A stretch of DNA of 59,163 nt from Minisyncoccota bacterium (GTDB taxonomy: Bacteria; Patescibacteriota; Minisyncoccia; Phycocordibacterales; DATDWN01), in the NCBI GenBank assembly GCA_036517395.1, contig DATDWN010000001.1:1-59163 (forward strand), given 5' to 3'. The position numbers were made by a program, and so were the translations under genes. Shown piece by piece: positions 277-53,090 of the stretch. The stretch's first letter is position 1. Each line of letters opens with the position of its first letter. Below the pieces are notes generated by a model that saw nothing but the letters and a program-made list of their open reading frames with translations, was not told the DNA's origin and did no database searches.

Positions 277-963
277 CTATAATACATTATTTTTTCTAAA
301 TTCTCCAACTAAAAGCTGTTGCCAAAATTGCATTTTTCTAAGTAAATGCATGCCTTTTGAAATTTCAATTCTCATACATCCCTTGTACATTGGTCGCTTT
401 TTATATCCCAAACCACTTGGTTTATAGACGGTTTTTTTAAATTTAGACAATGAAATACCAGTTGTTTTTGACCAATATTCCTCAAGATTCTCACTCTCAA
501 ACAACCTATGGGTATACAATCTCAAACTTATATTATTAACTTCTTTCAACAAAAACTTCCTGCACCACGATATCATAAATACTACCATTTCAGGATCCGA
601 ATTCATAAAATGGAAGGTTGAACTTCGTTTGGACCCTTCTGCCCAGTAAAGCCCAACGCCGACAAAAAACATTGGGTCATTCTTAAATACTTCAAATTCT
701 GATTTTGCTTGTATAAAGAGCTTTTTTTCTCTATCTAGCCTATTCCTTCTTATGGCAGTAGCTGATTTTATTCGTCCTCTTGATATATTTGTATCTATCC
801 TTTCTTTTAGGAGTTTTTTCTCTTCTGAAGTAATTGATAAGTCCTTTAACCAACTTGAAATAGTGCTTTTAGATACAAAAACTTGTGATAGAATATCTTT
901 GTAACTATTGCCCATTTTTCGCAACTCAATAGCCTTTTCTTTTTCCAGAACCTTCGTTTTCAT
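277..963 (-). CDS. HTH-domain protein of unknown function (CPR-typical)
   Basis: 228-aa ORF. N-terminal HTH-like segment (SYKDILSQVFVSKSTISSWL). Motif FFVGVGLYWAEGSK is reminiscent of LAGLIDADG-type folds. Function not established. Confidence 0.6.
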   Translation of the reverse strand: MKTKVLEKEKAIELRKMGNSYKDILSQVFVSKSTISSWLKDLSITSEEKKLLKERIDTNISRGRIKSATAIRRNRLDREKKLFIQAKSEFEVFKNDPMFFVGVGLYWAEGSKRSSTFHFMNSDPEMVVFMISWCRKFLLKEVNNISLRLYTHRLFESENLEEYWSKTTGISLSKFKKTVYKPSGLGYKKRPMYKGCMRIEISKGMHLLRKMQFWQQLLVGEFRKNNVL

Positions 964-1028
964 AGTATATAACTTGATTAGTATAGTTCATATGATAACA
1001 TTATTATAATTACAAGCAAAATAATCAA

Positions 1029-2552
1029 ATGAAATATTTCCCCATCCCAAAAGAAGTTTCACGAGTAACAGAAAAGCTAGAAGAAGCTGGTTTTGAGGTT
1101 TTTCTCGTGGGTGGGTGTGTTAGAGATTTGATTTTGGGCAGGGAACCCAAAGATTGGGATGTCACAACCAATGCCAAGCCCGAGGAGATAATAGCACTAT
1201 TTGACAAGACATTTTATGAAAACGACTATGGAACGGTGGGTGTAGTCATAGCCCGCGAAGGCGAAGATGCTGAGTCAGCAGGCGAGGCATTGATTGTTGA
1301 GGTCACTCCCTACAGAATCGAATCGAAATATTCCAACAATAGACATCCGGATAGCGTCGTTTTCAGCCAGAAACTGGAAGATGATTTGAAAAGAAGGGAT
1401 TTTACAATAAACGCTTTGGCCTATTCTGTTCCTGCCTCGCCGGTAGGCAGGTCACATGGCCTGTCTGCGCAGGCAGGAACAATCACCGACCTATATAGAG
1501 GAGAGAAGGATATGAAAGACAAAATAATTCGCACGGTGGGGGATCCGGTAGATCGTTTTACAGAAGATGGCCTACGTATACTCCGAGCGGTCAGGCTTTC
1601 GTGTGAGTTGGAGTTTGAAATAAGTCCTGAAACGGAGAAAGCAATATTTGAAAATGCTCATCTTCTGAAAAACATATCAATGGAGCGTATTCGAGATGAA
1701 TTTACAAAGATAATTATGTCGAATAGGCCCATCGACGGCCTGTTGACCATGAAAAAACTTGGTATTTTGAAATATGTTGTGCCAGAACTAGAAAAAACTG
1801 TCGGGGTTGAGCAGAATCAAGCCCACGCCTATGATGTGTGGGAGCACTTGATACGTTCGGTGCAGTGTGCCGCTGATAAAAATTACCCCTTAGAAATCCG
1901 TTTGGCGGCTCTATTTCACGATATTTCCAAGCCAGAGTCGCGAAGACGAAACAATGAACAGAACACTTGGACTTTTTATGGGCATGAGGTCCTTGGCGCA
2001 CGTGTGACAAGAAAAATCCTAGAAAATTTGCGTTATCCTAGCAAAATAATTGAAAAAGTGGTCACACTGGCTCGTTGGCATATGTTTTTTTCTGACACTG
2101 AGCAAATAACGCTCTCAGCGGTCCGTAGAATGATTGTAAATGTTGGACGGGATAATATTTGGGATTTGATGAATGTACGCATATGCGACCGTATAGGCAC
2201 TGGCAGGCCTAAGGAAGACCCGTATAGGCTTCGTAAATACCACGCCATGATAGAGGAAGCGCTCCGCGACCCAGTTTCTGTCGGAATGTTGAAAATTAAT
2301 GGCAAGAGATTGATGGATGTTACTCATGAAACAGCTGGACCAAAGATTGGATATGTTTTGCACGCTTTGCTCGAGGAGGTTTTGGAGGAGCCAAAGAAAA
2401 ATACTGAGGAATACCTAGAAAATCGGGCCAAAGAGCTTGTTTTGCTTCCTGAAAATGAACTGAAAGCCCTAGGTGAGCAGGGGAAGTTGAGTAAAGAAGA
2501 GGCAGACGAGGAGGAAATCAAAAAAATACGTGGAAGGCATTATGTAAAATAA
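1029..2552 (+). CDS. cca: CCA-adding enzyme / poly(A) polymerase family tRNA nucleotidyltransferase with HD domain
   Basis: 507-aa ORF. Nucleotidyltransferase head LVGGCVRDLILGREPKDWDVTT and RRDFTINALAY. HD region LFHDISKP. Confidence 0.85.
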   Translation: MKYFPIPKEVSRVTEKLEEAGFEVFLVGGCVRDLILGREPKDWDVTTNAKPEEIIALFDKTFYENDYGTVGVVIAREGEDAESAGEALIVEVTPYRIESKYSNNRHPDSVVFSQKLEDDLKRRDFTINALAYSVPASPVGRSHGLSAQAGTITDLYRGEKDMKDKIIRTVGDPVDRFTEDGLRILRAVRLSCELEFEISPETEKAIFENAHLLKNISMERIRDEFTKIIMSNRPIDGLLTMKKLGILKYVVPELEKTVGVEQNQAHAYDVWEHLIRSVQCAADKNYPLEIRLAALFHDISKPESRRRNNEQNTWTFYGHEVLGARVTRKILENLRYPSKIIEKVVTLARWHMFFSDTEQITLSAVRRMIVNVGRDNIWDLMNVRICDRIGTGRPKEDPYRLRKYHAMIEEALRDPVSVGMLKINGKRLMDVTHETAGPKIGYVLHALLEEVLEEPKKNTEEYLENRAKELVLLPENELKALGEQGKLSKEEADEEEIKKIRGRHYVK

Positions 2553-3991: not shown

Positions 3992-5050
3992 ATGGAGAAT
4001 TTAAGCCCCAGAGAACAGAAAATACTGGATATCTTGTCAAAGCAGGATAAAGCTCAGTCTTCAGATATTCATGCATTATTAAAACTTTTGGATGAAGATT
4101 TGTCTCTTGTGACCGTCAAAAGAGTCTTATCACGACTTCAATCATTGGGGGTTATTATTGTAAACGGTTCTGGCCGATCAACCTCATATACCATAACCAC
4201 ATACGGCAGACTAGTTTCAAATATTGATGCTCACTTATACTGTCTCAACGAGCCAGACAGGCGTCACGGTAGAAGTGGATATAATTTTTCACTTTTTGAA
4301 ACACTAAGTTTTAATCCACTTACAATAGACGAAGAAAAGGTCTTGGATATGGCCACAAAAAAATATCATGTCCGCACAAAAGATCTCTCGACTACAATAC
4401 AAGAAAAAGAGTTGGAGCGTTTTATCATTGAACTTTCGTGGAAGTCTTCAAAAATCGAAGGTAATACATATACATTACTCGACACTGAAAAACTAATTCG
4501 AGAGGGGATTGAGGCCATGGGACACAGTAAAGATGAAGCTAAAATGATTCTAAACCATAAAGAAGCTTTCAAATTTATAAGAGAAAATTCATCTGAATTC
4601 AAAACATTAACCAAGAAAAACATAGAAGAAGTCCATAAAATTCTGGTCAAAGACCTAAATGTAGACTTTGGTTTGCGTAAAAAACCTGTCGGGGTAACAG
4701 GTTCGCTATACCGTCCACTTGATAACATTTACCAGATTTCCGAAGCAATGGAACAACTATCCAAAAGTATTTCTCGTATAAAAAATCCGTACACCCAAGC
4801 GCTTGTGGCACTCGTCGGTATTAGTTACATCCAACCATTTGAAGATGGGAACAAAAGAACAGCGCGACTTATGGCAAACGCTCTACTTTTAGCTCATAAA
4901 TGCGCCCCTCTTTCTTATAGGAGTGTAGACGAAAATGCCTATCGTGAATCAATGCTCGTGTTTTATGAATTAAACTCTCTTGTGCCATTTAAAAAAATAT
5001 TTATTGAACAATATGTTTTTTCTGCTGAAAATTACTTGGTAAAATCATAA
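3992..5050 (+). CDS. Fic/DOC family protein with N-terminal winged-HTH and degenerate Fic motif
   Basis: 352-aa ORF. Core reads QPFEDGNKRTAR where the canonical motif is HxFx(D/E)GNGRxxR. N-terminal HTH-like region (LSLVTVKRVLSRLQSLGVI). Confidence 0.8.
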   Translation: MENLSPREQKILDILSKQDKAQSSDIHALLKLLDEDLSLVTVKRVLSRLQSLGVIIVNGSGRSTSYTITTYGRLVSNIDAHLYCLNEPDRRHGRSGYNFSLFETLSFNPLTIDEEKVLDMATKKYHVRTKDLSTTIQEKELERFIIELSWKSSKIEGNTYTLLDTEKLIREGIEAMGHSKDEAKMILNHKEAFKFIRENSSEFKTLTKKNIEEVHKILVKDLNVDFGLRKKPVGVTGSLYRPLDNIYQISEAMEQLSKSISRIKNPYTQALVALVGISYIQPFEDGNKRTARLMANALLLAHKCAPLSYRSVDENAYRESMLVFYELNSLVPFKKIFIEQYVFSAENYLVKS

Positions 5051-5587: not shown

Positions 5588-6106
5588 ATGACCAAAAAAC
5601 AAGCCGTAAAAATAATAATTATTCTTTGTTGCATAGTTTTTTTGCTTTTGGTGTGTTTTTATTTTTTTTCTAATCCGCGTTCTGTTAAATCATTTGGCCC
5701 ATTCAAGTTGGGCGATCAAGCGCCCATTGTATCGGAGAATGTACCAGAATATGAATTTATTTATAGTTTGAAATATAAATTTTATATATATGCCATGGAA
5801 AAGAATATGAGTTATTGTGCGTTAGAAGATTGTGGGATGAGCGGAACTTTCGTTAGTTGTATGGGGGGATGGCTTTCCGCCGATGGCTTAAGTGGTGACG
5901 GTGGTGCAAACGACTATGGTTTAGTGGAAGAAGAGGTCGTGGAAGGAAAATCATCCATTATTTTAGTCGCAGATAAAGACAAGAAGATTATAGGTATATA
6001 TCCAAATTATAGAGTGCAAAATATTCCTTATATTTTAAAGAACTATCGCGATGTATTTGAAAGATTTGATTCGTGTTATGAAATGGAAATGCCAACTAAG
6101 TGGTAA
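5588..6106 (+). CDS. Membrane-anchored protein of unknown function (possible partner of 5127..5585)
   Basis: 172-aa ORF starting 3 nt after the previous stop. N-terminal TM helix IIIILCCIVFLLLVCFYFF. Confidence 0.65.
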   Translation: MTKKQAVKIIIILCCIVFLLLVCFYFFSNPRSVKSFGPFKLGDQAPIVSENVPEYEFIYSLKYKFYIYAMEKNMSYCALEDCGMSGTFVSCMGGWLSADGLSGDGGANDYGLVEEEVVEGKSSIILVADKDKKIIGIYPNYRVQNIPYILKNYRDVFERFDSCYEMEMPTKW

Positions 6107-6284
6107 GTACCAAGTTTATTAAACTGTCATTTTTTAAACAAAAGAAAACCCCTAGCGAACTTGTCGCTGGGGGTTTTGGCGCGTGGGAAACGAAGGGGAG
6201 GACAAAAGTGGCGACCGTGACAGCTCCGACGAAGCAACCGAACGCAAACGACACCATCGCCACGATGATGAACCATGGAAACAT
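6096..6284 (-). CDS. Small hydrophobic peptide downstream of the hammerhead (tentative)
   Basis: SD AAAGGAG 7 nt upstream of ATG 6284. N-terminus MFPWFIIVAMVSFAFGCFVGAVTVATFVL is a TM helix. The reading frame runs through the terminator hairpin, so the true C-terminus is uncertain. Confidence 0.35.
   Translation of the reverse strand: MFPWFIIVAMVSFAFGCFVGAVTVATFVLPFVSHAPKPPATSSLGVFFCLKNDSLINLVLTT
6141..6177. terminator. Bidirectional intrinsic terminator
   Basis: 10-bp stem CCCCTAGCGA-ACTTG-TCGCTGGGGG (6149..6173) flanked by an A-rich run (6141..6148) and TTTT (6174..6177). Confidence 0.65.
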
Positions 6285-6344
6285 TTGACACTCCTTTGTT
6301 TAGGAACTTTATCCCGTAGTGAACTTCGCTCTACTACTGGGAAT

Positions 6345-6393
6345 CTGTTTCGTTCTTTCGAACTCATCAGGCAAAGTACACACTTTGCTACAG
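6345..6393 (-). ncRNA. Hammerhead ribozyme motif, type III topology
   Basis: Minus strand: CTGT-A | GCAAAGT-GTGT-ACTTTGC | CTGATGA | GTTC-GAAA-GAAC | GAAA-CAG. Complete catalytic core, GUA cleavage triplet (bond between 6389 and 6388). Stem III is only 4 bp. Confidence 0.7.
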
Positions 6394-6629
6394 TAAGAGT
6401 TTTTGTACGGACTCTTAAACCGTAGATACATAATTCCCAGTGTTGCATCATTTCTGGGTAGGAAATGCAAAAATTTTATCTTGCATATTCCTTCAGTTTT
6501 TGCGGTCTCGCCCTGCCTTATTGTTGAACTGGTGGCTAGCCAATTCTGATTTCGTGCAGGATCCCCGCTCACACTTTGTTTAGTGGGTTTTATTGTCTAG
6601 GAGTTGTCCTTCTCCACCAAGAGTCAAGC

Positions 6630-6944
6630 TTAGTCTCGTCCGGTTGTTATCGGGCCCGAAGGTCCCCTACTTACTGCCTGTGGAAGTTTGCAAACTACTC
6701 GGCCATTATCAACCACCTTACCAATAAGACTTCGGAGATTTTCAACCGCATCTTGTGGCAGTTCACGTTCTGCGATAATCTCTGCATCTCTACAGCTACC
6801 GTCACATGTTGTGATTACGCGACGGTCTACTATTGGTGGTGCATAGATCATGTTGACATGTATTCCATCAACACAGTAGTCCATTATTGCTCCTGATGGG
6901 ACAGGAACGTCTCTCGCTACCCTGAAGAGTCTCATTGTAGGCAT
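6630..6944 (-). CDS. Small Cys-containing protein of unknown function, first gene of the hammerhead transcription unit
   Basis: Strong SD AAGGAGG 7 nt upstream of ATG 6944 (the track's GTG at 6953 lies inside the SD region). 104 aa, MPTMRLFRVARDV... No family recognised. Confidence 0.6.
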   Translation of the reverse strand: MPTMRLFRVARDVPVPSGAIMDYCVDGIHVNMIYAPPIVDRRVITTCDGSCRDAEIIAERELPQDAVENLRSLIGKVVDNGRVVCKLPQAVSRGPSGPITTGRD

Positions 6945-7023
6945 CCTTTTCACCTCCTTTTTACCCTAAGAGCCATCAAAGGGCTTTGTGTACATGTGAG
7001 AGATTATCCCTCTTTCTGACATA

Positions 7024-7052
7024 AGATTAGCATGAATTATGACTAGTGTCAA
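7024..7052 (-). promoter_or_regulatory. Sigma70-like promoter of the 6.1-7.0 kb minus-strand unit
   Basis: Minus strand TTGACA (7052..7047), 17-nt spacer, TAATCT (7029..7024). Divergent from the TrmB-like gene. Confidence 0.5.
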
Positions 7053-7173
7053 AATAAATGACATAAAATTATTAACAATATCAAAAGACTATCATACTAT
7101 ATATGGCTAGTAACAAGGATAAAACAGACTACTTGCATAGTTTTTACTATTTGCTATAATACTGTCATCTAAA

Positions 7174-7959
7174 ATGACAACAGTAAAAACATCAAAAGAT
7201 CCACAGATTTCTGACTACCTAGTGAGGGTCATGACTAATGTTGGATTATCTAAAAATCAGGCTTGTGTATACTTGGCTTGTTTGAAACTAGGGAACGCAT
7301 CTATTTGGGATATTTCTGAAACTTCTGGGGTTAAAAGAACCACCTGTTATGTGGTTATAAATGATCTGGTATCCAAAGGCATAGCTAGTGTAGGTGGAGA
7401 TAGTAAGAAAGCTATGTATTCTGTCATCAGTCCAAATGAATTTATATTTAGTTTCAAAAACAAACAAAATCAACTAGTGGAGTCAGTCAGTGAACTAAAT
7501 GCTCTAATAAGTAAAACTTATTCCAGACCTCATCTCAGAATGTTTGAAGGGATTGATGGAGTAGAACAAGCTTATAAGCTGACTCTCAATATTTCCGAGG
7601 GAAATGAAATACTAATTTATGGAAATCCTGATGTTGTTATCAATTATCAAGGCATGATTGATAATTATTTGAGACAAAGGGTGAAAGATGGAATAAAAGT
7701 CAGAGCGATTCTGCCTGATACACTACTAGCTCGAGAAGTTATAGGGAAAGACAAGGAACAATTGAGAGAAACTCGACTCCTATCGAAAAATACTTTTGAC
7801 CAACAGACAGAAATAAATATTTTACCGGATTCAATCATTTACATCGCCCATTCGGAAAATAAACCATTTGCCACGGTTATAGAAAACTCCACTTTAGCCA
7901 GAGAAGAAAAGGGAAGGTTTGAGATTTTGTGGAGTATGGCAAAACTAGAAGATGTTTGA
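7174..7959 (+). CDS. TrmB-like transcriptional regulator
   Basis: 261-aa ORF. N-terminal winged HTH (LSKNQACVYLACLKLGNASIWDISETSGVKRTTCYVVINDLVSKGI). Paralogous to 17577..18338. Confidence 0.75.
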   Translation: MTTVKTSKDPQISDYLVRVMTNVGLSKNQACVYLACLKLGNASIWDISETSGVKRTTCYVVINDLVSKGIASVGGDSKKAMYSVISPNEFIFSFKNKQNQLVESVSELNALISKTYSRPHLRMFEGIDGVEQAYKLTLNISEGNEILIYGNPDVVINYQGMIDNYLRQRVKDGIKVRAILPDTLLAREVIGKDKEQLRETRLLSKNTFDQQTEINILPDSIIYIAHSENKPFATVIENSTLAREEKGRFEILWSMAKLEDV

Positions 7960-7990
7960 CAAACATATACCCAAGTATATACTTTGGTAT

Positions 7991-8275
7991 ATGACTTCAG
8001 CAACAAACACAAAGACATTGTTAACAGTGAAAATCGATAAGAAGCTAAAATTGGCCGCGCAAAAAACCGCAAAGTACATAGGTATCCCTTTGGGTACTTT
8101 TATCAATTCCAGTTTAAAAGATTTTGTTCGTACAAAGGAAGTTAGACTTGGTGGCGAGACCCCAAATAAAAAGACCATACAAGCTATTCTACAAGCTGAA
8201 AAAGAATTTGCTCGCGGTGAATATGAAGGACCATTTACAGTTGAAGAATTGAAAAAAGAATGGAAACTAGTCTAG
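7991..8275 (+). CDS. Type II antitoxin (RelB/DinJ-like RHH)
   Basis: TVKIDKKLKLAAQKTAKYIGIPLGTFINSSLKDFV ribbon-helix-helix-like N-terminus. Directly upstream of a RelE-family toxin. Start at the internal ATG is preferred over 7952, which overlaps the TrmB gene. Confidence 0.65.
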   Translation: MTSATNTKTLLTVKIDKKLKLAAQKTAKYIGIPLGTFINSSLKDFVRTKEVRLGGETPNKKTIQAILQAEKEFARGEYEGPFTVEELKKEWKLV

Positions 8276-8287
8276 TCGTTTATTTCC

Positions 8288-8545
8288 ATGACATTTATCT
8301 ATACAAAGCAGTTTGTTAAAGATCGTAAAAAACTATCTAAACCAATACAAAATAAAATAATAGAACGCCTTGAATTATTTTTGAAAAATCCGACTCATCC
8401 TCTTCTTAATAATCATTGGCTTAATCCTCCATGGCAAGGTCACAAAAGTATAAACGTAACGGGTGATATTCGTTTGATATATAAAGATGAAGGTTTCGCC
8501 TGTCGGTTGGTGAGGGTTGGAACACATCCGCAACTTTACTCATAA
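8288..8545 (+). CDS. Type II toxin, RelE/YafQ family
   Basis: 85-aa ORF. FVKDRKKLSKPIQNKIIERLELFLKNPTHPLLNNH...GDIRLIYK...VGTH pattern is typical of RelE/YafQ mRNA interferases. Confidence 0.75.
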   Translation: MTFIYTKQFVKDRKKLSKPIQNKIIERLELFLKNPTHPLLNNHWLNPPWQGHKSINVTGDIRLIYKDEGFACRLVRVGTHPQLYS

Positions 8546-9458: not shown

Positions 9459-9791
9459 TTAGTAATAAAAGACCTCGTTTAATGAATAGAAAATATCTTT
9501 CAACTGTTCGCCGGTGATTTCACCTATTTTTTTAATCATTCTTTCTTTTGATATGGTCCGGATTTGAAAAGTTATAATTTCAGAATTTTCGCTTAGTTTA
9601 TTGACTTTGTCTTTTGTTAGACTAACACAACCTGCATAATTTTTTATTTTACTTGAAATGGGACAAACAATGTAGACACCCAAGTTTTTATTCATGGCAT
9701 TTCCAGAAATAATAACCACAGGTCTTTTGCCCTTCTGCTCCTTGCCCTTTGTTGGGTTAAGATCTGCTAAATAAATATCTTTTTGAAGCAT
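9459..9791 (-). CDS. Type II toxin, MazF/PemK family
   Basis: 110-aa ORF. DIYLADLNPTKGKEQKGKRPVVIIS...CPISSK is typical of PemK/MazF. Confidence 0.8.
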   Translation of the reverse strand: MLQKDIYLADLNPTKGKEQKGKRPVVIISGNAMNKNLGVYIVCPISSKIKNYAGCVSLTKDKVNKLSENSEIITFQIRTISKERMIKKIGEITGEQLKDIFYSLNEVFYY

Positions 9792-16927: not shown

Positions 16928-17209
16928 TTGTACAAAGTGTACAATATGGTTATGAATATAAAAACAATGTCGTCGACCAAAGCTAGGGCAAATATAAGCG
17001 AGATTATTGAACGGGTTAAGACCCGTGGGGAAGTTTTTGTTTTCGGCAGAAGAAACAACCCTGAGGCAGTACTAGTCAAGTTCCCAGATGTTTATAATTC
17101 AAGATTTTCAGATATTACAAATGTAAATGCTTATTCTGGTAGTTTTGATTTTCTAAAAAAAGAACCAGACCTATATAGTATAAAAGATTTAAAGAAAAAA
17201 TATGCATAG
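16928..17209 (+). CDS. Type II antitoxin, Phd/YefM family
   Basis: SSTKARANISEIIERVKTRGEVFVFGRRNNPEAVLV. Overlaps the toxin start by 8 nt. Confidence 0.75.
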   Translation: MYKVYNMVMNIKTMSSTKARANISEIIERVKTRGEVFVFGRRNNPEAVLVKFPDVYNSRFSDITNVNAYSGSFDFLKKEPDLYSIKDLKKKYA

Positions 17210-17537
17210 CGGTGTATTTAGTTTGGGGAAAATAATTCTGATACCTTTTCCGTTTACAGACTTGTCCGGAGTAAAAGTTCGTCCTGCCGTAATAATCTCA
17301 AATAAATCAATAGGAGATGATATCTTAGTAGCTTTTATTTCAACTAACACCAAGAAAAAAAGCCATTTTGAAATTGTAGTGAAAATGAACAATCAAAATG
17401 GGTTAAAATCCGACTCTACTGTTGTGGTTTCAAAGATTGCTACGCTAGAAAAGAAAACTGTTTTAGGTGAGATTGGAAAATTATCAAAAAGTGAAATCTT
17501 ACAAGTAAAGAAAAAACTCAAAGATTTGTTTTTCTGA
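17202..17537 (+). CDS. Type II toxin, MazF/PemK-like
   Basis: GKIILIPFPFTDLSGVKVRPAVIIS pattern. Confidence 0.75.
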   Translation: MHSGVFSLGKIILIPFPFTDLSGVKVRPAVIISNKSIGDDILVAFISTNTKKKSHFEIVVKMNNQNGLKSDSTVVVSKIATLEKKTVLGEIGKLSKSEILQVKKKLKDLFF

Positions 17538-17576: not shown

Positions 17577-18338
17577 ATGATTGATAAATATCTAGAAGAT
17601 GCGGGGCTTTCGGATAAAGAAGTGGCCGTATATTTGCACCTAGTCCAGGTGGAACAGGCCTCTGTAGTCGAACTGGCTCAAAAAACCAAAATAAAAAGGC
17701 CGACTGTTTACACCATACTCGACTCACTTTCAAAAAAGGGTTTAGTTAGCGAAATAGAGTATGACAAAAAAACTAAATATCTAGCTGAACCACCAGAAAG
17801 GTTAAAAACATTTATTGAGAGAAAAGAAATGTCTCTAAACGAACTAAAGGATCGTTTCGTTAAAGATGTGATACCACAAATAAAAAGCCTACAGAGAGAG
17901 AGCGGAGAGAAACCAATAGTAAGATATTTCTCTGGCAAAGAGGGAATAGTTAGTTTGCAAAACAATATATACTCCGGATCCCCAGATGGTTCTCCAATTT
18001 ATATACTTTATCCAAAGGATCTTTTAGATGAATCATTCAAGGATGAAGAAACAGATAAGTACAAAAAAACAAGAACAGGTATAGGAATAAAAGCGAAAGT
18101 CCTCTATAACTGGACAAAGGGGGAGAAGCCATCAGACGAATTGGCTGAAAGAAAGAAGGTTGACGAAAAAAAATATCCATTCTTCGCCGATATAACAGTA
18201 TATAAAGACAAAGTCAGAATTAGTATTTTAGGTAAAAAATTATCTGGAATATATATTGAGAGTAAGGACTTTGCTGAAACGTTGAAAAGTCTTTTCAATC
18301 TAGCCTTTGATAATCTAAAAAATAATTCGGATAAATAA
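17577..18338 (+). CDS. TrmB-like transcriptional regulator
   Basis: LSDKEVAVYLHLVQVEQASVVELAQKTKIKRPTVYTILDSLSKKGLV winged HTH. Paralog of 7174..7959. Confidence 0.75.
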   Translation: MIDKYLEDAGLSDKEVAVYLHLVQVEQASVVELAQKTKIKRPTVYTILDSLSKKGLVSEIEYDKKTKYLAEPPERLKTFIERKEMSLNELKDRFVKDVIPQIKSLQRESGEKPIVRYFSGKEGIVSLQNNIYSGSPDGSPIYILYPKDLLDESFKDEETDKYKKTRTGIGIKAKVLYNWTKGEKPSDELAERKKVDEKKYPFFADITVYKDKVRISILGKKLSGIYIESKDFAETLKSLFNLAFDNLKNNSDK

Positions 18339-18835: not shown

Positions 18836-19273
18836 ATCTCCAGAATCAAAACATTGAAAGTCAGGACGGTTTGACAGATGTCTCAGCTTTTGCTTCCACT
18901 TAGGCGCCTGGATCGCACAAATTAGTTGCGAGAGGCCCTAGGCGGGAGCAAAAGCTTCCAACAAGACTATGTCACAGGTACAAATCCTGATTGGCGCTGG
19001 GATTGCTGTCCACTCGTTTGTGGATGGCGCCCGAGTGTCGCGGCCGAAGCTTCGGGAAACCGAAGTGGACGCCCTCGCCCATGCCCTGTGGCTTGAAAAC
19101 CACGGTCAGCAGAAGCGAGCTCTGAAGTATCTGGAAGAATATCTCCAGAGAAACAGAGGCAATACTTGCCACTTAGGTGGCGGCCGGGGTGTTATCGCAG
19201 TCCTGGGAACAGAAAATGCGTACGCGGTTGGTTAACCGAGAAACAAAAATAACCCAGTTGGCTTGCCAACTGT

Positions 19274-19326
19274 ATCTGTCGTCCGATGTGTGTCGGGCTT
19301 GATGAGTTCAAAAGAACGAAACAGAT
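19274..19326 (+). ncRNA. Hammerhead ribozyme motif, type III, variant core
   Basis: ATCTGT-C | GTCCGA-TGTGTG-TCGGGC | TTGATGA | GTTC-AAAA-GAAC | GAAA-CAGAT. Same architecture as the other two copies, but position C3 reads U (or CUUGAUGA with an extra U). Confidence 0.55.
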
Positions 19327-20072
19327 GTTCCTTAAAATTTTGAAAAATAACTTCGTGGCCATGTTACTGAATCTCAACTTTTTAGATTCAGTAACATGGC
19401 CATGGAGAGCCAGATAGTCCAGCGATGGACGATTCGTCTCGGACAGCACGACCGAGGCGGGGTTGTATCGAAAGATATAATCCAAATCTCCACATATGTG
19501 GTTAAGAGGAGGGTCTACCAAACCCGAGGCCTCTCAGCCACATATGTTCGTAGCGTTTGGCGATGCTACGAAAGTTAGAAGACGAAACAGGCCCGAGGAA
19601 GTGACTGTCCGAAGGGTTTCTGATGAAAGTCAGAAGTGTGCCAACACCTGTTAGTTGGAAAGTCAGTGGCTAGGCTTAGGGACCGCAAGTCTCTTTGCTA
19701 AAGCCTCCCCCATTACTGACACAGTGCGGTCGCAAATTTGCAAAAATTTGCGAAGGCAAAGTTGGGGGGAAACCAAGAGCGTAGAGCCAGACCTCATCGT
19801 ACAGAGGGAGAGTGGATTAAGCCCCACTCATGCGTGAAACCCCGGCCAGGGTGAATCGCAATAAGCTCTTGGTGGATATGGTGGGCAACCGGCCGTCCCA
19901 AAAGGACACAGGTTGTGGTTAAAAGAGTAGAACCGATCGCAAATCGGTGGTTGGAGCTCGGGGTCACCTGGGCGCAATCTACTCTGGAGGCAAAATTGAC
20001 CTTGTTTGCTTCCACCTTGTTCTTTCTTCAGGCAATAAATAAATTTGTCTGAACGTCGCCAGAACGCATCTG

Positions 20073-20127
20073 GTACTGTCGTCTGATGTGTATCAGACCT
20101 GATGAGTTCGAAAGAACGAAACAGTAC
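20073..20127 (+). ncRNA. Hammerhead ribozyme motif, type III, canonical core
   Basis: GTACTGT-C | GTCTGAT-GTGT-ATCAGAC | CTGATGA | GTTC-GAAA-GAAC | GAAA-CAGTAC. 7-bp stem III, GUC triplet (cleavage after C20080), GNRA-capped stem II. Confidence 0.8.
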
Positions 20128-20220
20128 AAGGTTTGTGTTTATTAGGGATTTCCTTAAAAGTAAATTATTTTGATAGTTTTCTTTTAAGGGAAATTCTTCC
20201 CTAGTTCTTTGAGGACACAC

Positions 20221-25407: not shown

Positions 25408-27053
25408 TGATCAAAAAGATCTTAGAGGAAATAGAGAATCAGAAAATGACTATAAGTCAGTGGGTGCTTGGTTTCAGTGGTATACTTTTTGTTCGTTTTC
25501 TGTTTGAATCTCTTTCAAGTCCCACGAGTACGGGCATTATTCCTTCGGATCCTTATACATTAGTTCATTACGGACTTTTTTTCCTTTCTATTATTTTGGT
25601 TACGGCGTGTATTATTGGATTTATAACCAAAAATTACGAGGCGGGTGTGAAAGTAATTCTTTTTGGTTTGCCCGTTATTTGGCTTGCTCCTATCATTGAT
25701 ATTTTATTGAGCAGAGGTCTGGGGTACAAAATGACTTATATTTTCGATACGCATGGCAAACTGCTTTTTGATTTTCTGACATTTTTTGGCTCCAACCTAA
25801 CACACGGAGCGACATACGGTATTCGAGTAGAAATAATTCTCATTCTTGCGGGTGTTGGTTGGTATTTATGGTTGAAAACAAAAAATATATCCAAGACTTT
25901 GCTTGGGGTAATAGCCACTTATGTTTTAGGATTTGTAATGGCAAGTTTACCTGGAATTTTGTATACATTTTCTCATTTTCATGCGGGGACTACGATAGAT
26001 GTTCTAAAGTTTTTTGAGAATACAGTCAACGGGTCAAACATATTTCACAATACGCTTCATGATGGAAACCTTTCGGTATCAGCATCCAGATTTTTTGAGT
26101 TGGGATTTGATAAATTGATGTCTCAAATACTTTTTATTATTTCTTTTTTCTTTGGAGCATTACTTCTTTGGAAAATCGATAGCAAAAAATTTAGAGCTGT
26201 AATCGGGAATATTCGTTTGGAGCGCATATCTTCGTATATTGTTCTACTTCTCTGTGGGGCAGGATTCGCTTATATAAACAGACTAAGTGGTGAGTTAATT
26301 TGGGCAGATTTACTGGGACTTTTGTGCCTCATAATTTCTTGGGTTTCCCTGTGGATGCAGGCCGTGCACACAAATGACGTAAGCGATGTAAAAATAGACG
26401 AAATATCAAACACAGATAGACCCCTAATAAAAAAAGAATTAAATGAAAATGATATGCGACAGACAGGTTTTCTCTGGCTTGCTATCGCTCTTCTGGGCTC
26501 GTGGTCCGCTGGATTTTATCCATTTTTTATGGCTCTAGTTTTCGTTGCAACTTCATATATATATTCATCTTACCCACTACGCCTCCGAAGATTTCCTATA
26601 ATTCCATCATTTCTAATAGGCGTAGCCTCTCTCGCCACCATATTAGCTGGATTCTTTTTTATTTCGGCTCACAAAGAAATCGGAAATTTTCCAATGCTCC
26701 TCGCTGTGGGAATAGTGATCATGGTCACTCTTGCTATAAACGTCAAAGATATGAGAGATATAGAGGGGGATAGAGCTGATGGAATACTGACTCTGCCTGT
26801 GCTTTTTGGCCAAAACGGGGCGAAAATAGTGGGGCTATGTTTGGCTCTAAGTTTTCTTCTTGTGCCGATTTTTCTATCTTTCTATGCTTTATATATCTTT
26901 TCCATACCAGCGGCGATTATCGGCTATAAGCTAGTTACAAAAAAACCATATACAGAAAAACCTCTTTTTATTTTACGTTTTGTTTTTTTGGCTTGTGTTG
27001 CATTTTCTTACCTCGGTGTGTATTGGTTAGCACATTTGTACGGTGTGATATAA
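25404..27053 (+). CDS. Polytopic membrane protein with C-terminal UbiA-family prenyltransferase domain
   Basis: NDVSDVKIDEISNTDRP (NDxxDxxxD) and DMRDIEGDRADGILTLP motifs. Many TM helices. Confidence 0.75.
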   Translation: MMIKKILEEIENQKMTISQWVLGFSGILFVRFLFESLSSPTSTGIIPSDPYTLVHYGLFFLSIILVTACIIGFITKNYEAGVKVILFGLPVIWLAPIIDILLSRGLGYKMTYIFDTHGKLLFDFLTFFGSNLTHGATYGIRVEIILILAGVGWYLWLKTKNISKTLLGVIATYVLGFVMASLPGILYTFSHFHAGTTIDVLKFFENTVNGSNIFHNTLHDGNLSVSASRFFELGFDKLMSQILFIISFFFGALLLWKIDSKKFRAVIGNIRLERISSYIVLLLCGAGFAYINRLSGELIWADLLGLLCLIISWVSLWMQAVHTNDVSDVKIDEISNTDRPLIKKELNENDMRQTGFLWLAIALLGSWSAGFYPFFMALVFVATSYIYSSYPLRLRRFPIIPSFLIGVASLATILAGFFFISAHKEIGNFPMLLAVGIVIMVTLAINVKDMRDIEGDRADGILTLPVLFGQNGAKIVGLCLALSFLLVPIFLSFYALYIFSIPAAIIGYKLVTKKPYTEKPLFILRFVFLACVAFSYLGVYWLAHLYGVI

Positions 27054-27056
27054 TTA

Positions 27057-27192
27057 ATCCGCACACCAACTCTGGCATAGTTGCATAGTGTTTTTATTAA
27101 ATACACTACTTGATACAAAATTATCGAGATCAATGTTTTATAGAAATTCTTAACATGCAACAAAAACACAATGCCAGAGTTGGTGTACGGAT
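27057..27192 (+). repeat. Family B hairpin element ending just before a start codon (copy 1)
   Basis: Terminal inverted repeats ATCCGCACACCAACTCTGGCAT... / ...ATGCCAGAGTTGGTGTACGGAT. ATG of 27195 is 2 nt downstream. Confidence 0.75.
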
Positions 27193-27194
27193 AA

Positions 27195-28028
27195 ATGCCA
27201 AGTAATAAAATTCTAACAATACTGATCATTTGTTTTGGAATCGTAGTGGCAATTTACCTATTTGAGAAAACCCCGAAACAAATTTCTCAAAACAATACAT
27301 CTCCCTCGCAAAATATAGATGTGGGAAGTGTAAATTCTATTGAAAACACCAGCAATGATGATTGGAAAAAAATACTGGTCTCGATTGGTCAGAGCAGTAC
27401 AACTGTTTTGACAAACCAAAACCCAGAAGTTTTCGACGGCACCACCATAACATCCCAAGTGGCAAAAGATTTTTTCTCTCAATATTTGCTCGCAAAGGGA
27501 GGTGGTGGAACCGTGACGGTAGATATGGCAAATAAAATCAGTGATAGCGTCCTATCAAATACGAACTACACCCAAATAAATGGACCGATTTACATAGCGG
27601 AAAACCTCCATATAAAACAAGAGGAAAATCTAGACATAATAAAAAGTTACAAAACAACTCTCAATCTAATCTTGAAAACTAGGTCAACCCAAGTTACAGA
27701 CAGCCCTGTAACGGCTATAAACAAAGCAACCAAGGCGGGCGGACAAGATGCTCTTCTGCGACTAGACTCTACTATTTCCATAGCCAAGGGCCTAGTTTCC
27801 GATCTTTTGCAGATGAACGTTCCAAAAAGCGCCGTTTCCGCACACCTCGCCCTTCTCAACGCCACAAGTGATGTTGTCTCTGACTTGGAAGCCATGCGAG
27901 TGGCATTTACGGACCCCATCAGGGGTCTTGCTGGTATAGGTCAATACAACAGCGACATGATCAAATTTCAAAACGCACTGATTGAAGTGAATAAATACTT
28001 GGCCCAGAAAACAGGCTCAAACATATAA
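27195..28028 (+). CDS. Membrane-anchored protein, first gene of the T4SS-like cluster
   Basis: 277-aa ORF, N-terminal TM ILTILIICFGIVVAIYLF. Confidence 0.7.
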   Translation: MPSNKILTILIICFGIVVAIYLFEKTPKQISQNNTSPSQNIDVGSVNSIENTSNDDWKKILVSIGQSSTTVLTNQNPEVFDGTTITSQVAKDFFSQYLLAKGGGGTVTVDMANKISDSVLSNTNYTQINGPIYIAENLHIKQEENLDIIKSYKTTLNLILKTRSTQVTDSPVTAINKATKAGGQDALLRLDSTISIAKGLVSDLLQMNVPKSAVSAHLALLNATSDVVSDLEAMRVAFTDPIRGLAGIGQYNSDMIKFQNALIEVNKYLAQKTGSNI

Positions 28029-52722: not shown

Positions 52723-52732
52723 TTTATTTTTT

Positions 52733-52866
52733 ATCCGCACACCAACTTCTGTCTCGTTGCCCTGTCTCAGAGTTTAGTTGTACATCTCTATTTTAGAGAT
52801 AAAAACTAACTTCGCAAAGCTTTCAATGTCGCAACACAGAGACAAGACAGAAGTTAGTGTGCGGAT
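52733..52866 (-). repeat. Family B hairpin element (copy 3)
   Basis: ATCCGCACACCAACTTCTGTCT... / ...AGACAGAAGTTAGTGTGCGGAT. On the minus strand it ends GTGTGCGGATAAAAAATAAA-ATG. Confidence 0.75.
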
Positions 52867-53090
52867 GAATATTTTATTAATCATTACTCGGCATATTTGT
52901 ATCAAATTGTATATTTTTTGCAAACATCTTATCCAACTCAATTTGTGGATAACTTTTTATCTGCGACGAGAGAGGAGCGCGTGAATGTGTAATCACATTC
53001 ACAGCGTCCGAACGAGGAGTAGCAATGGTAAAAACCCCGCCCCTCTGGGGCGGAACAGGGGTCCAGGACTTGCCCTGGGGTTTCATACCA

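Follow-up and report, generated by a model that had tools for sequence, protein, structure and literature searches.

The 59,163-nucleotide (nt) stretch of Minisyncoccota DNA analysed here (contig DATDWN010000001.1, hereafter the window) carries two hammerhead ribozyme loci: a cassette of small genes on the minus strand at 6096-7052 (locus 1), which is our main subject, and a locus near 20.1 kb on the plus strand (19272-20130; locus 2). By its sequence the hammerhead of locus 1 is a bona fide type III ribozyme, and it belongs to a large and uniform family. With slightly better than even confidence, we propose that it would cut a read-through transcript into an upstream RNA ending in a hairpin and a downstream RNA beginning with a 5'-hydroxyl (5'-OH). 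This confidence is limited by a competing fold of the locus 1 copy and by a search for RNA-Seq runs of the locus that found none. The original prediction for this region, made from the letters of the DNA, had listed a promoter, a small protein gene, a structured spacer, the hammerhead, a small hydrophobic peptide and a terminator; all of these elements are present in their predicted places on the minus strand (Table 1), although only some of them rise above chance.

The hammerhead call is confirmed by a full core, by the score of a custom covariance model built from 14 hammerhead relatives (Table 1) and by covariation across the family. Along the minus strand, the helix I hairpin (6388-6371) is followed by the CUGAUGA strand of the core (6370-6364), the helix II hairpin (6363-6352) and the GAAA strand (6351-6348). 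Helices I and II are closed by loops and helix III is open, as in type III. Helix I is perfectly paired and no core nucleotide is altered, U6390 facing A6348 in the A15.1-U16.1 pair. The predicted cleavage site, between A6389 and G6388, follows the triplet GUA (6391-6389), which conforms to the N-U-H pattern with an unpaired H. The type III model of Rfam (RF00008) gives the ribozyme 24 bits (E-value 0.029) and its gathering score of 48.5 is not reached; the low score stems from short helices and a different set of loops, not from a broken core. With filters off, the custom model recovers exactly three hammerheads in the window, one of them in 5800-7400, and no second, degenerate hammerhead upstream in locus 1. 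The core together with helix II (24 nt) occurs exactly at 6370-6348 and 20099-20121, and as a variant at 19299. In locus 1 the hammerhead and the hairpin upstream of it (6416-6395) are enclosed by an outer helix of 9 base pairs (bp), and the fold of 6450-6335 has a z-score of -5.1.

The hammerhead core was also found in five Saccharibacteria genome loci, five IMG/VR contigs and more than 119 metagenome loci. In reference genomes, the closest relatives all come from Candidatus Saccharibacteria assemblies, which by context points to a host in the candidate phyla radiation, and the family is otherwise located mostly on phage-like contigs. All relatives that were scored against the Rfam type III model reach 35.7-45.6 bits, below its gathering score. 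In an alignment of 124 distinct relatives, 88.8% of the cells are paired, compared with 62% in shuffles, and the covariation score is 0.668, compared with 0.166 in shuffles (none of 500 reaches the observed value) and ∼0.1 in slid controls. Helix I is paired in 99.5% of cells and covaries in all six of its pairs. The first core-adjacent pair of helix III (A15.1-U16.1) is invariant and the second nearly so, while the outer pairs covary; helix II is variable among the extra matches. The typical member has an 18-nt helix I hairpin with a loop rich in U-G-N-G-U, a helix II of 4 bp with a GAAA or AAAA loop, and a helix III of 3-6 bp (88 of 95 relatives). The cleavage triplet is GUC in 75 of these 95 relatives and GUA in 16.

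The surroundings of the ribozyme are similarly regular. A stable hairpin abuts it upstream across the family: the 40 nt preceding helix III have a median folding energy of -10.5 kcal/mol, compared with -4.2 kcal/mol in control windows (p = 6e-18). Downstream, 96 of 107 non-redundant relatives have an ATG-initiated open reading frame (ORF) of at least 30 amino acids (aa) within 200 nt, with the start codon at a median distance of 27 nt (quartiles 25-45) and a median ORF length of 78 aa. Transmembrane-looking products make up 28% of these ORFs against a crude background of 13% (p = 2e-4), a mild enrichment and not a rule. The predicted placement of the ribozyme shortly upstream of a membrane-targeted small ORF thus extends to the family as far as placement goes, whereas the membrane type of the product is not a defining feature. 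Same-strand clusters of ribozymes between small genes occur in several comparison loci (L011, L012, L015, L016, L084 and others; L-numbers denote comparison loci), with four hammerheads spaced by 400-570 nt in L011. The locus 1 copy fits the family, having a hairpin directly upstream, a 4-bp helix III and an ATG 60 nt past the ribozyme.

Within the four-ribozyme array of L011, a Saccharibacteria genome, a 65-nt match to the transfer-messenger RNA (tmRNA) family (5922-5986; 60 bits, above the gathering score) lies ∼15 nt downstream of a hammerhead and covers the tRNA-like ends only. The core is also present on contigs of 1.1-2.0 kb (L042, L083, L026, L120 and L133; also L023, L093, L037 and L051). 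The first five of these have terminal repeats, with a period of 1158 nt in L042; several bear further, weaker hammerhead matches on their other strand, and in some there is an arginine-rich ORF of capsid-like type. Their appearance is that of small circular replicons and not of phage DNA. In three IMG/VR and marine contigs (L017 270-332, L018 4584-4646 and L041 1337-1399) the 24-nt core is set in a type I arrangement, in which helix III is the closed helix and helix I the open one; the core with helix II is thus reused in circularly permuted forms.

Hammerhead cleavage produces a 2',3'-cyclic phosphate and a 5'-OH end. We infer the following course of events for this small-gene cassette, which lies divergently from a TrmB-type gene in a groundwater chromosome of the candidate phyla radiation (Patescibacteria-type). 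One transcript would start from a putative promoter at ∼7020 and run through the gene of a 104-aa protein, two RNA-like modules (elements B and A), a hairpin free of a U-tract, and the hammerhead. Since the hairpin after element A lacks a U-tract, read-through is plausible; the promoter scan detected no promoter-like site on the minus strand between 6500 and 6400. The short helix III would be propped by the adjacent hairpin and, in the locus 1 copy, by the enclosing 9-bp helix, and the ribozyme would cut itself between A6389 and G6388. The upstream product would be ∼630 nt long, with a hairpin end and a 2',3'-cyclic phosphate. The downstream product of ∼250 nt would carry a 5'-OH, the folded ribozyme body, a 104-nt leader, a ribosome-binding site, a hydrophobic ORF and the terminator. 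The cut would thereby separate the fate of one half from that of the other, and the stability and translation of the downstream RNA would no longer depend on its upstream context. A cleavage leaving a 5'-OH on the downstream RNA, as had been predicted, would follow from established hammerhead chemistry, and the predicted processing role agrees with what has been put forward for the clustered hammerheads of prophages (PMC3088659).

Several observations weigh against the cutting of a read-through transcript at locus 1. A search for RNA-Seq data covering the locus found no run that contains it. Helix III is short, with four pairs between CUGU (6393-6390) and ACAG (6348-6345). The fold constrained to the active structure has an energy of -28.5 kcal/mol, while in the unconstrained minimum (-36.5 kcal/mol) the cleavage-site strand ACUGUA is paired with an upstream UACGGU; since the alternative is more stable by 8 kcal/mol, the locus 1 copy may be slow or conditional. 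The predicted promoter, TTGACA-17-TAATCT, is there and is plausible, but it does not exceed chance: its second hexamer is weak, matching the consensus at three of six positions, and a consensus scan, which omits this pair of hexamers, reports 10 promoter-like sites in the region, close to the 5.7 ± 2.5 expected by chance. The frame of the downstream 62-aa ORF crosses the terminator and has its stop codon beyond it, so that a terminated transcript would lack a stop, and the status of the ORF as a gene is doubtful. In a 493-nt contig from run X9 (X-numbers denote metagenome runs), the 3' end of the neighbouring gene (5945-6095, ∼80% identity) is joined to element A (6503-6574, 72 of 72 positions identical) by 85 nt of unseen sequence, compared with 407 nt in the window. 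This spacing suggests that a related genome lacks 6096-6502 and, together with relatives of the 104-aa gene that have no hammerhead, that the ribozyme module is dispensable. Finally, assemblies of locus 1 from several samples are 99.8-100% identical, and this absence of variation makes them uninformative for a strain-based test of coding or covariation.

Some of these points would fit a different history, which we consider improbable, in which the ribozyme is a decaying or idle relic and 6096-6502 is a phage-derived or mobile cassette fragment between host genes, the hammerhead being misfolded in its context and nothing downstream being expressed. The more stable alternative fold and the apparent absence of the stretch from a related genome agree with such a history, as do the G+C content of the stretch (∼47%, above that of its neighbours), the predominance of phage-like contigs in the hammerhead family and the lack of relatives of the 62-aa ORF. 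Decay, however, should change the core, as in the U3 variant at 19299, whereas the locus 1 copy has an intact core, a perfect helix I and the 9-bp enclosing helix. The near-identity of locus 1 across assemblies is neutral on this question, not supportive.

The downstream ORF has the Shine-Dalgarno sequence and the frame running into the terminator that had been predicted, and its 32 N-terminal residues are hydrophobic. Its standing as a gene is unsupported. It has no relatives among 5.8 billion proteins, forming a single-member cluster, and it is called as a gene in one record only, being missing from the gene calls of L001-L004. Five of the six frames are open across 6150-6290, so the length of the ORF has no statistical weight. 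The terminator itself folds with -18.5 kcal/mol on the minus strand (z-score -3.4) and -23.5 kcal/mol on the plus strand (z-score -4.3), and is common to the convergent gene at 5588-6106.

The hydrophobic N-terminus also underlies the suggestion, made in the original prediction, of a toxin-like membrane peptide. On such a scheme the ribosome-binding site would be masked by the 3' tail, and cleavage or 3' trimming would turn translation on. The 3' fragment is indeed structured (z-score -4.05), with its ribosome-binding region paired with the U-rich tail of the terminator; the strands that can pair are UAAACAAAGG, at the ribosome-binding site, and CUUUUGUUUA, which follows the terminator. Toxin-antitoxin genes (RelB/YafQ, PemK, Fic) are also plentiful nearby. 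However, an A-rich leader will fairly often pair with a U-rich tail on composition alone, which makes this pairing weak evidence, and normal termination would remove most of the tail. The promoter scan found no promoter-like site for an antisense RNA to the ORF, nor was such an RNA found; the ORF is not conserved, and a transmembrane product does not define the family. We therefore regard a toxin as very improbable, with nothing in support of a toxin role.

The ∼240 nt between the 104-aa gene and the hammerhead, predicted to be a structured spacer, proved to be structured, but they are modular rather than a spacer. The 232 nt from 6629 to 6398 fold better than shuffles (z-score -3.4, or -4.9 with the ribozyme included). 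Besides the ribozyme itself, a segment of ∼170 nt (6666-6498) recurs in unrelated metagenomes with 85-100% identity and with compensatory changes, as seen in contigs of groundwater, freshwater and hot spring origin, from four metagenomes in all. It comprises two recurrent RNA-like modules, elements A and B, the latter often, though not always, adjoining the former. Element A folds into a hairpin whose 9+9 internal loop (ACGAAAUCA / AACAAUAAG) is conserved and whose apical stem varies. Its changes are concentrated in the arms 6546-6540 and 6532-6526, two pairs being altered on both sides in one contig, and a U-G pair favours the minus strand. Rfam searches of the two elements at E-values up to 10 gave no meaningful family, and neither element was found in the IMG/VR, phage or plasmid collections. 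We rejected the idea that the spacer arose as a duplicate of the 104-aa gene that has since decayed, as a profile of the gene finds nothing there in any frame.

The position of these conserved modules just upstream of the hammerhead bears on what the cut might be for. It is possible, though in our view unlikely, that the hammerhead trims the 3' end of the 104-aa messenger RNA (mRNA). The released message would then carry modules B and A and the hairpins on its 3' side, with a defined, hairpin-protected end, and the downstream ∼250 nt would be a non-coding by-product ending at the shared terminator. The poor credentials of the 62-aa ORF agree with such trimming, and a contig from run X15 has element A next to a hammerhead, in a run that shows no coverage of the 104-aa gene. 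At locus 2, the hammerheads flank a conserved RNA of ∼750 nt, suggesting that this family excises non-coding RNA in this genome. Against trimming, the tight spacing of the start codon in the family points to a role for the downstream RNA, and locus 1 has a good ribosome-binding site and an ATG at a short distance past the ribozyme. Moreover, element A elsewhere is followed by a G+C-rich hairpin of its own, without a ribozyme, so that element A does not need one.

The 104-aa Cys-containing ORF with its strong Shine-Dalgarno sequence is present as predicted, and its conservation indicates that it is a real gene. A word-indexed homology search had returned only the protein itself; this was overturned by an exhaustive phmmer search of 1.8 billion representatives, which recovered nine relatives of 73-123 aa (E-values 2e-10 to 5e-4). 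In the 10-member alignment, the four invariant residues (Table 1) lie in the motifs YC.DG.H and T.C[DN]G.C. AlphaFold with the family alignment predicts a beta-rich protein (confidence score pLDDT 86, predicted TM-score 0.71) with a disordered C-terminus of 15-20 residues (tail pLDDT below 60); a single-sequence prediction was unusable (pLDDT 38). No similar fold was found in the PDB and BFVD (best TM-score 0.42), and the protein has no Pfam, PHROG or PADLOC match. It is probably a small metal-binding, zinc-finger-like domain. The final ∼12 codons of the gene fall inside element B, in agreement with the unconserved, low-confidence C-terminus of the protein. In other genomes the relatives are often two tandem paralogues beside a divergent TrmB gene, as in the window, and no hammerhead was found in their loci. 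The predicted unit of promoter, protein, ribozyme and peptide is thus not conserved as a shared architecture, and the ribozyme module can be separated from the protein gene.

The second half of the original prediction, that locus 1 parallels the locus near 20.1 kb, holds for the ribozyme family, a strong -35 box, a TrmB neighbour and a downstream ORF whose N-terminus is hydrophobic; it does not hold for the small protein and the spacer. The raised G+C content is likewise common to both loci, and beyond the ribozyme no similarity between them was found. The locus 2 ortholog L082, with a TrmB protein 81% identical to that of the window, was compared over its matching stretch 824-1687 (minus strand). 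The 88-aa ORF of locus 2 (18969-19235) is not conserved there, while the ∼750 nt between the two locus 2 hammerheads are well over 90% identical through their central part, and a long hairpin (19356-19402) shows compensatory changes. This stretch folds with a z-score of -14.4 and has no Rfam match; RNase P RNA, tmRNA and an intron were considered and rejected for lack of Rfam support. Relatives with ∼90% identity occur in metatranscriptomes from soil, sediment, ice and groundwater, one 585-nt contig matching 19403-19989. By sequence comparison, locus 2 is thus a ribozyme-flanked non-coding RNA and not a small protein with a spacer; its downstream hydrophobic ORF encodes a lipoprotein and keeps its position in L082. 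In the first hammerhead of locus 2 (19299-19306), which may be weakened, core position C3 is occupied by U (UUGAUGAG) without a matching change of G8; the corresponding ribozyme of L082 retains the canonical C, and its helix II is longer. L082 also has an extra G+C-rich insert of ∼400 nt (∼440-800, minus strand) between the second hammerhead and the lipoprotein ORF, which is not in the window.

The window has exactly two TrmB genes (7174-7959 and 17577-18338), each beside a hammerhead cassette. TrmB homologues adjoin relatives of the 104-aa gene in L140, L144, L145 and L148, and in L147 the gene has TrmB-like fragments next to it; other homologues adjoin hammerhead cassettes in L011, L012, L014 and L082. 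The presence of TrmB beside cassettes or Cys/His/Cys/Cys genes in at least eight other candidate-phyla loci suggests a recurrent module of a regulator and a cassette. A broader and tentative reading, which we consider unlikely, is that TrmB-linked cassettes of candidate phyla combine orphan genes with non-coding RNAs made of reusable RNA modules, in which hammerheads would serve as punctuation releasing the parts. The modules would be the phage-type type III hammerhead, elements A and B and the ∼750-nt RNA of locus 2; locus 1 would be a minimal cassette, and element A would represent a new RNA class.

Table 1. Features of locus 1 and its surroundings (positions in the window)
Feature	Position	Strand	Basis or remark
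TrmB-family regulator gene	7174..7959	+	Pfam TrmB, E-value 4e-12; divergent from the cassette
Promoter-like site	7024..7052	-	TTGACA 7052-7047, 17-nt spacer, TAATCT 7029-7024; read from sequence
Shine-Dalgarno AGGAGG	6953..6958	-	8 nt before ATG 6944; read from sequence
104-aa protein gene	6630..6944	-	9 phmmer relatives; invariant C24, H29, C47, C51
Element B, ∼86-nt conserved module	6581..6666	-	Contigs from four other metagenomes; sharp edge at 6666, unlike flanks
Element A, ∼74-nt module	6498..6572	-	85-100% identity, sharp edges, unlike flanks; runs X8, X9, X12, X15
Hairpin directly after element A, without U-tract	6460..6492	-	Minimum-free-energy fold
Extended ribozyme domain	6336..6441	-	Outer 9-bp helix ACUGGGAAU (6441-6433) / AUUCCCAGU (6344-6336)
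Type III hammerhead	6345..6393	-	Custom covariance model, 70.5 bits, E-value 8.6e-21
Shine-Dalgarno AAGGAG	6291..6296	-	6 nt before ATG 6284; read from sequence
62-aa hydrophobic ORF, coding doubtful	6096..6284	-	Maximal 19-residue Kyte-Doolittle mean 2.42
Bidirectional intrinsic terminator	6133..6177	both	Hairpin 6177-6145, U-tracts on both strands
Stretch apparently lacking in a related genome	6096..6502	-	Hairpin after A, hammerhead, 62-aa ORF, terminator

The window otherwise encodes a CCA-adding enzyme, a UvrD helicase, KsgA, a ComM-like ATPase, an M23/LysM peptidase, a tyrosine recombinase and several toxin-antitoxin pairs. At the gathering score, Rfam detects only a tRNA in the whole window. 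Identical copies of locus 1 were found in groundwater and soil metagenomes, including samples of an aquifer study. The tyrosine recombinase and an ORF6N/Rha-like gene lie 3.5-5 kb from the locus 1 cassette. PHROG searches with the cassette and neighbouring proteins and PADLOC searches with the cassette proteins gave no match, apart from generic helix-turn-helix matches for the second TrmB. Toxin-antitoxin and related genes crowd around the cassettes (3992-5050, 7952-8545, 9459-9791 and 17202-17537) and include a Fic/DOC protein with an N-terminal winged helix, a RelB-like/YafQ pair and two PemK/MazF toxins. Two long hairpins of ∼143 nt, at 27053-27196 and 52729-52870, have common terminal inverted repeats of ∼19 nt (TTATCCGYACACCAAC...). 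From their sequence they look like miniature inverted-repeat elements, and the microRNA matches reported for them by Rfam were dismissed as spurious.

The function of bacterial and phage hammerheads is still listed as open in reviews (PMC6155905). The present analysis places active-looking hammerheads, as judged from their sequence, in candidate-phyla chromosomes, and describes a large, uniform type III family that lies under the Rfam gathering score and is therefore missed by routine annotation. The fixed geometry of this family, with an upstream hairpin, a short helix III and an ATG ∼27 nt downstream, provides a testable model for bacterial and phage hammerheads. Locus 1 also yields a new family of small proteins, predicted to be of metal-binding type and without a known fold match, and an unclassified recurrent RNA module. 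The arrangement of a hammerhead with a small ORF is in itself of a known kind, and the gain in this respect is modest.

Known systems differ in how closely locus 1 resembles them. Type I toxin-antitoxin systems of the hok/sok kind combine a small hydrophobic ORF with a structured mRNA in which 5'-3' pairing may hide the ribosome-binding site. Locus 1 has a small hydrophobic ORF, a structured mRNA and a possible pairing of this type; however, neither an antisense RNA in cis, which defines such systems together with the hydrophobic ORF, nor a conserved peptide family was found, and processing would be carried out by a ribozyme rather than by a host nuclease. RiboJ insulators are engineered from a type III hammerhead and an accessory hairpin placed before a ribosome-binding site, where cleavage strips the upstream context and leaves a structured 5'-OH leader. 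The RiboJ hairpin is downstream of the ribozyme, whereas the conserved hairpin of locus 1 is upstream and would remain on the released 5' product.

A self-cleaving ribozyme placed right before an ORF is also known from eukaryotic leader ribozymes, described in a preprint, in which activity is tied to expression of the ORF; those cases differ in that they involve cap-independent translation and are mostly type I ribozymes in RNA genomes. According to the same preprint, type III hammerheads are typical of circular RNA agents, and type I is the usual DNA-encoded form in bacteria and phages. In the haloviruses HF1 and HF2, the hammerhead lies 13 nt before the start codon of a helicase, and the 5' end of the mRNA maps within 3 nt of the cleavage site (PMC3088659), indicating that the ribozyme makes the 5' end of the message. 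That hammerhead, from a virus of archaea, has an unusual structure and depends on salt (PMC3088659). Locus 1 resembles it in having the ribozyme just upstream of a start codon, and differs in its 60-nt spacing and its doubtful downstream gene.

The closest comparison is with the clustered hammerheads of bacteria and prophages, which flank small non-conserved ORFs and cleave polycistronic constructs in vitro, and one of which is cleaved in vivo in Agrobacterium (PMC3088659; PMC6155905). For prophage hammerheads the proposed role is to divide a multi-gene transcript into RNAs of one gene each (Perreault et al. 2011, PMC3088659). A full-text literature search found no paper tying hammerheads to Saccharibacteria. 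Unlike the prophage clusters, which have several ribozymes per strand, locus 1 has a single copy; its host belongs to the candidate phyla, without a PHROG match nearby; its ribozyme is a type III variant below the Rfam gathering score; and it adjoins a TrmB-type regulator and conserved RNA-like modules. Like the prophage hammerheads (PMC3088659), the ribozyme of locus 1 is DNA-encoded, intergenic and on the same strand as small, poorly conserved ORFs, and its relatives form same-strand clusters.

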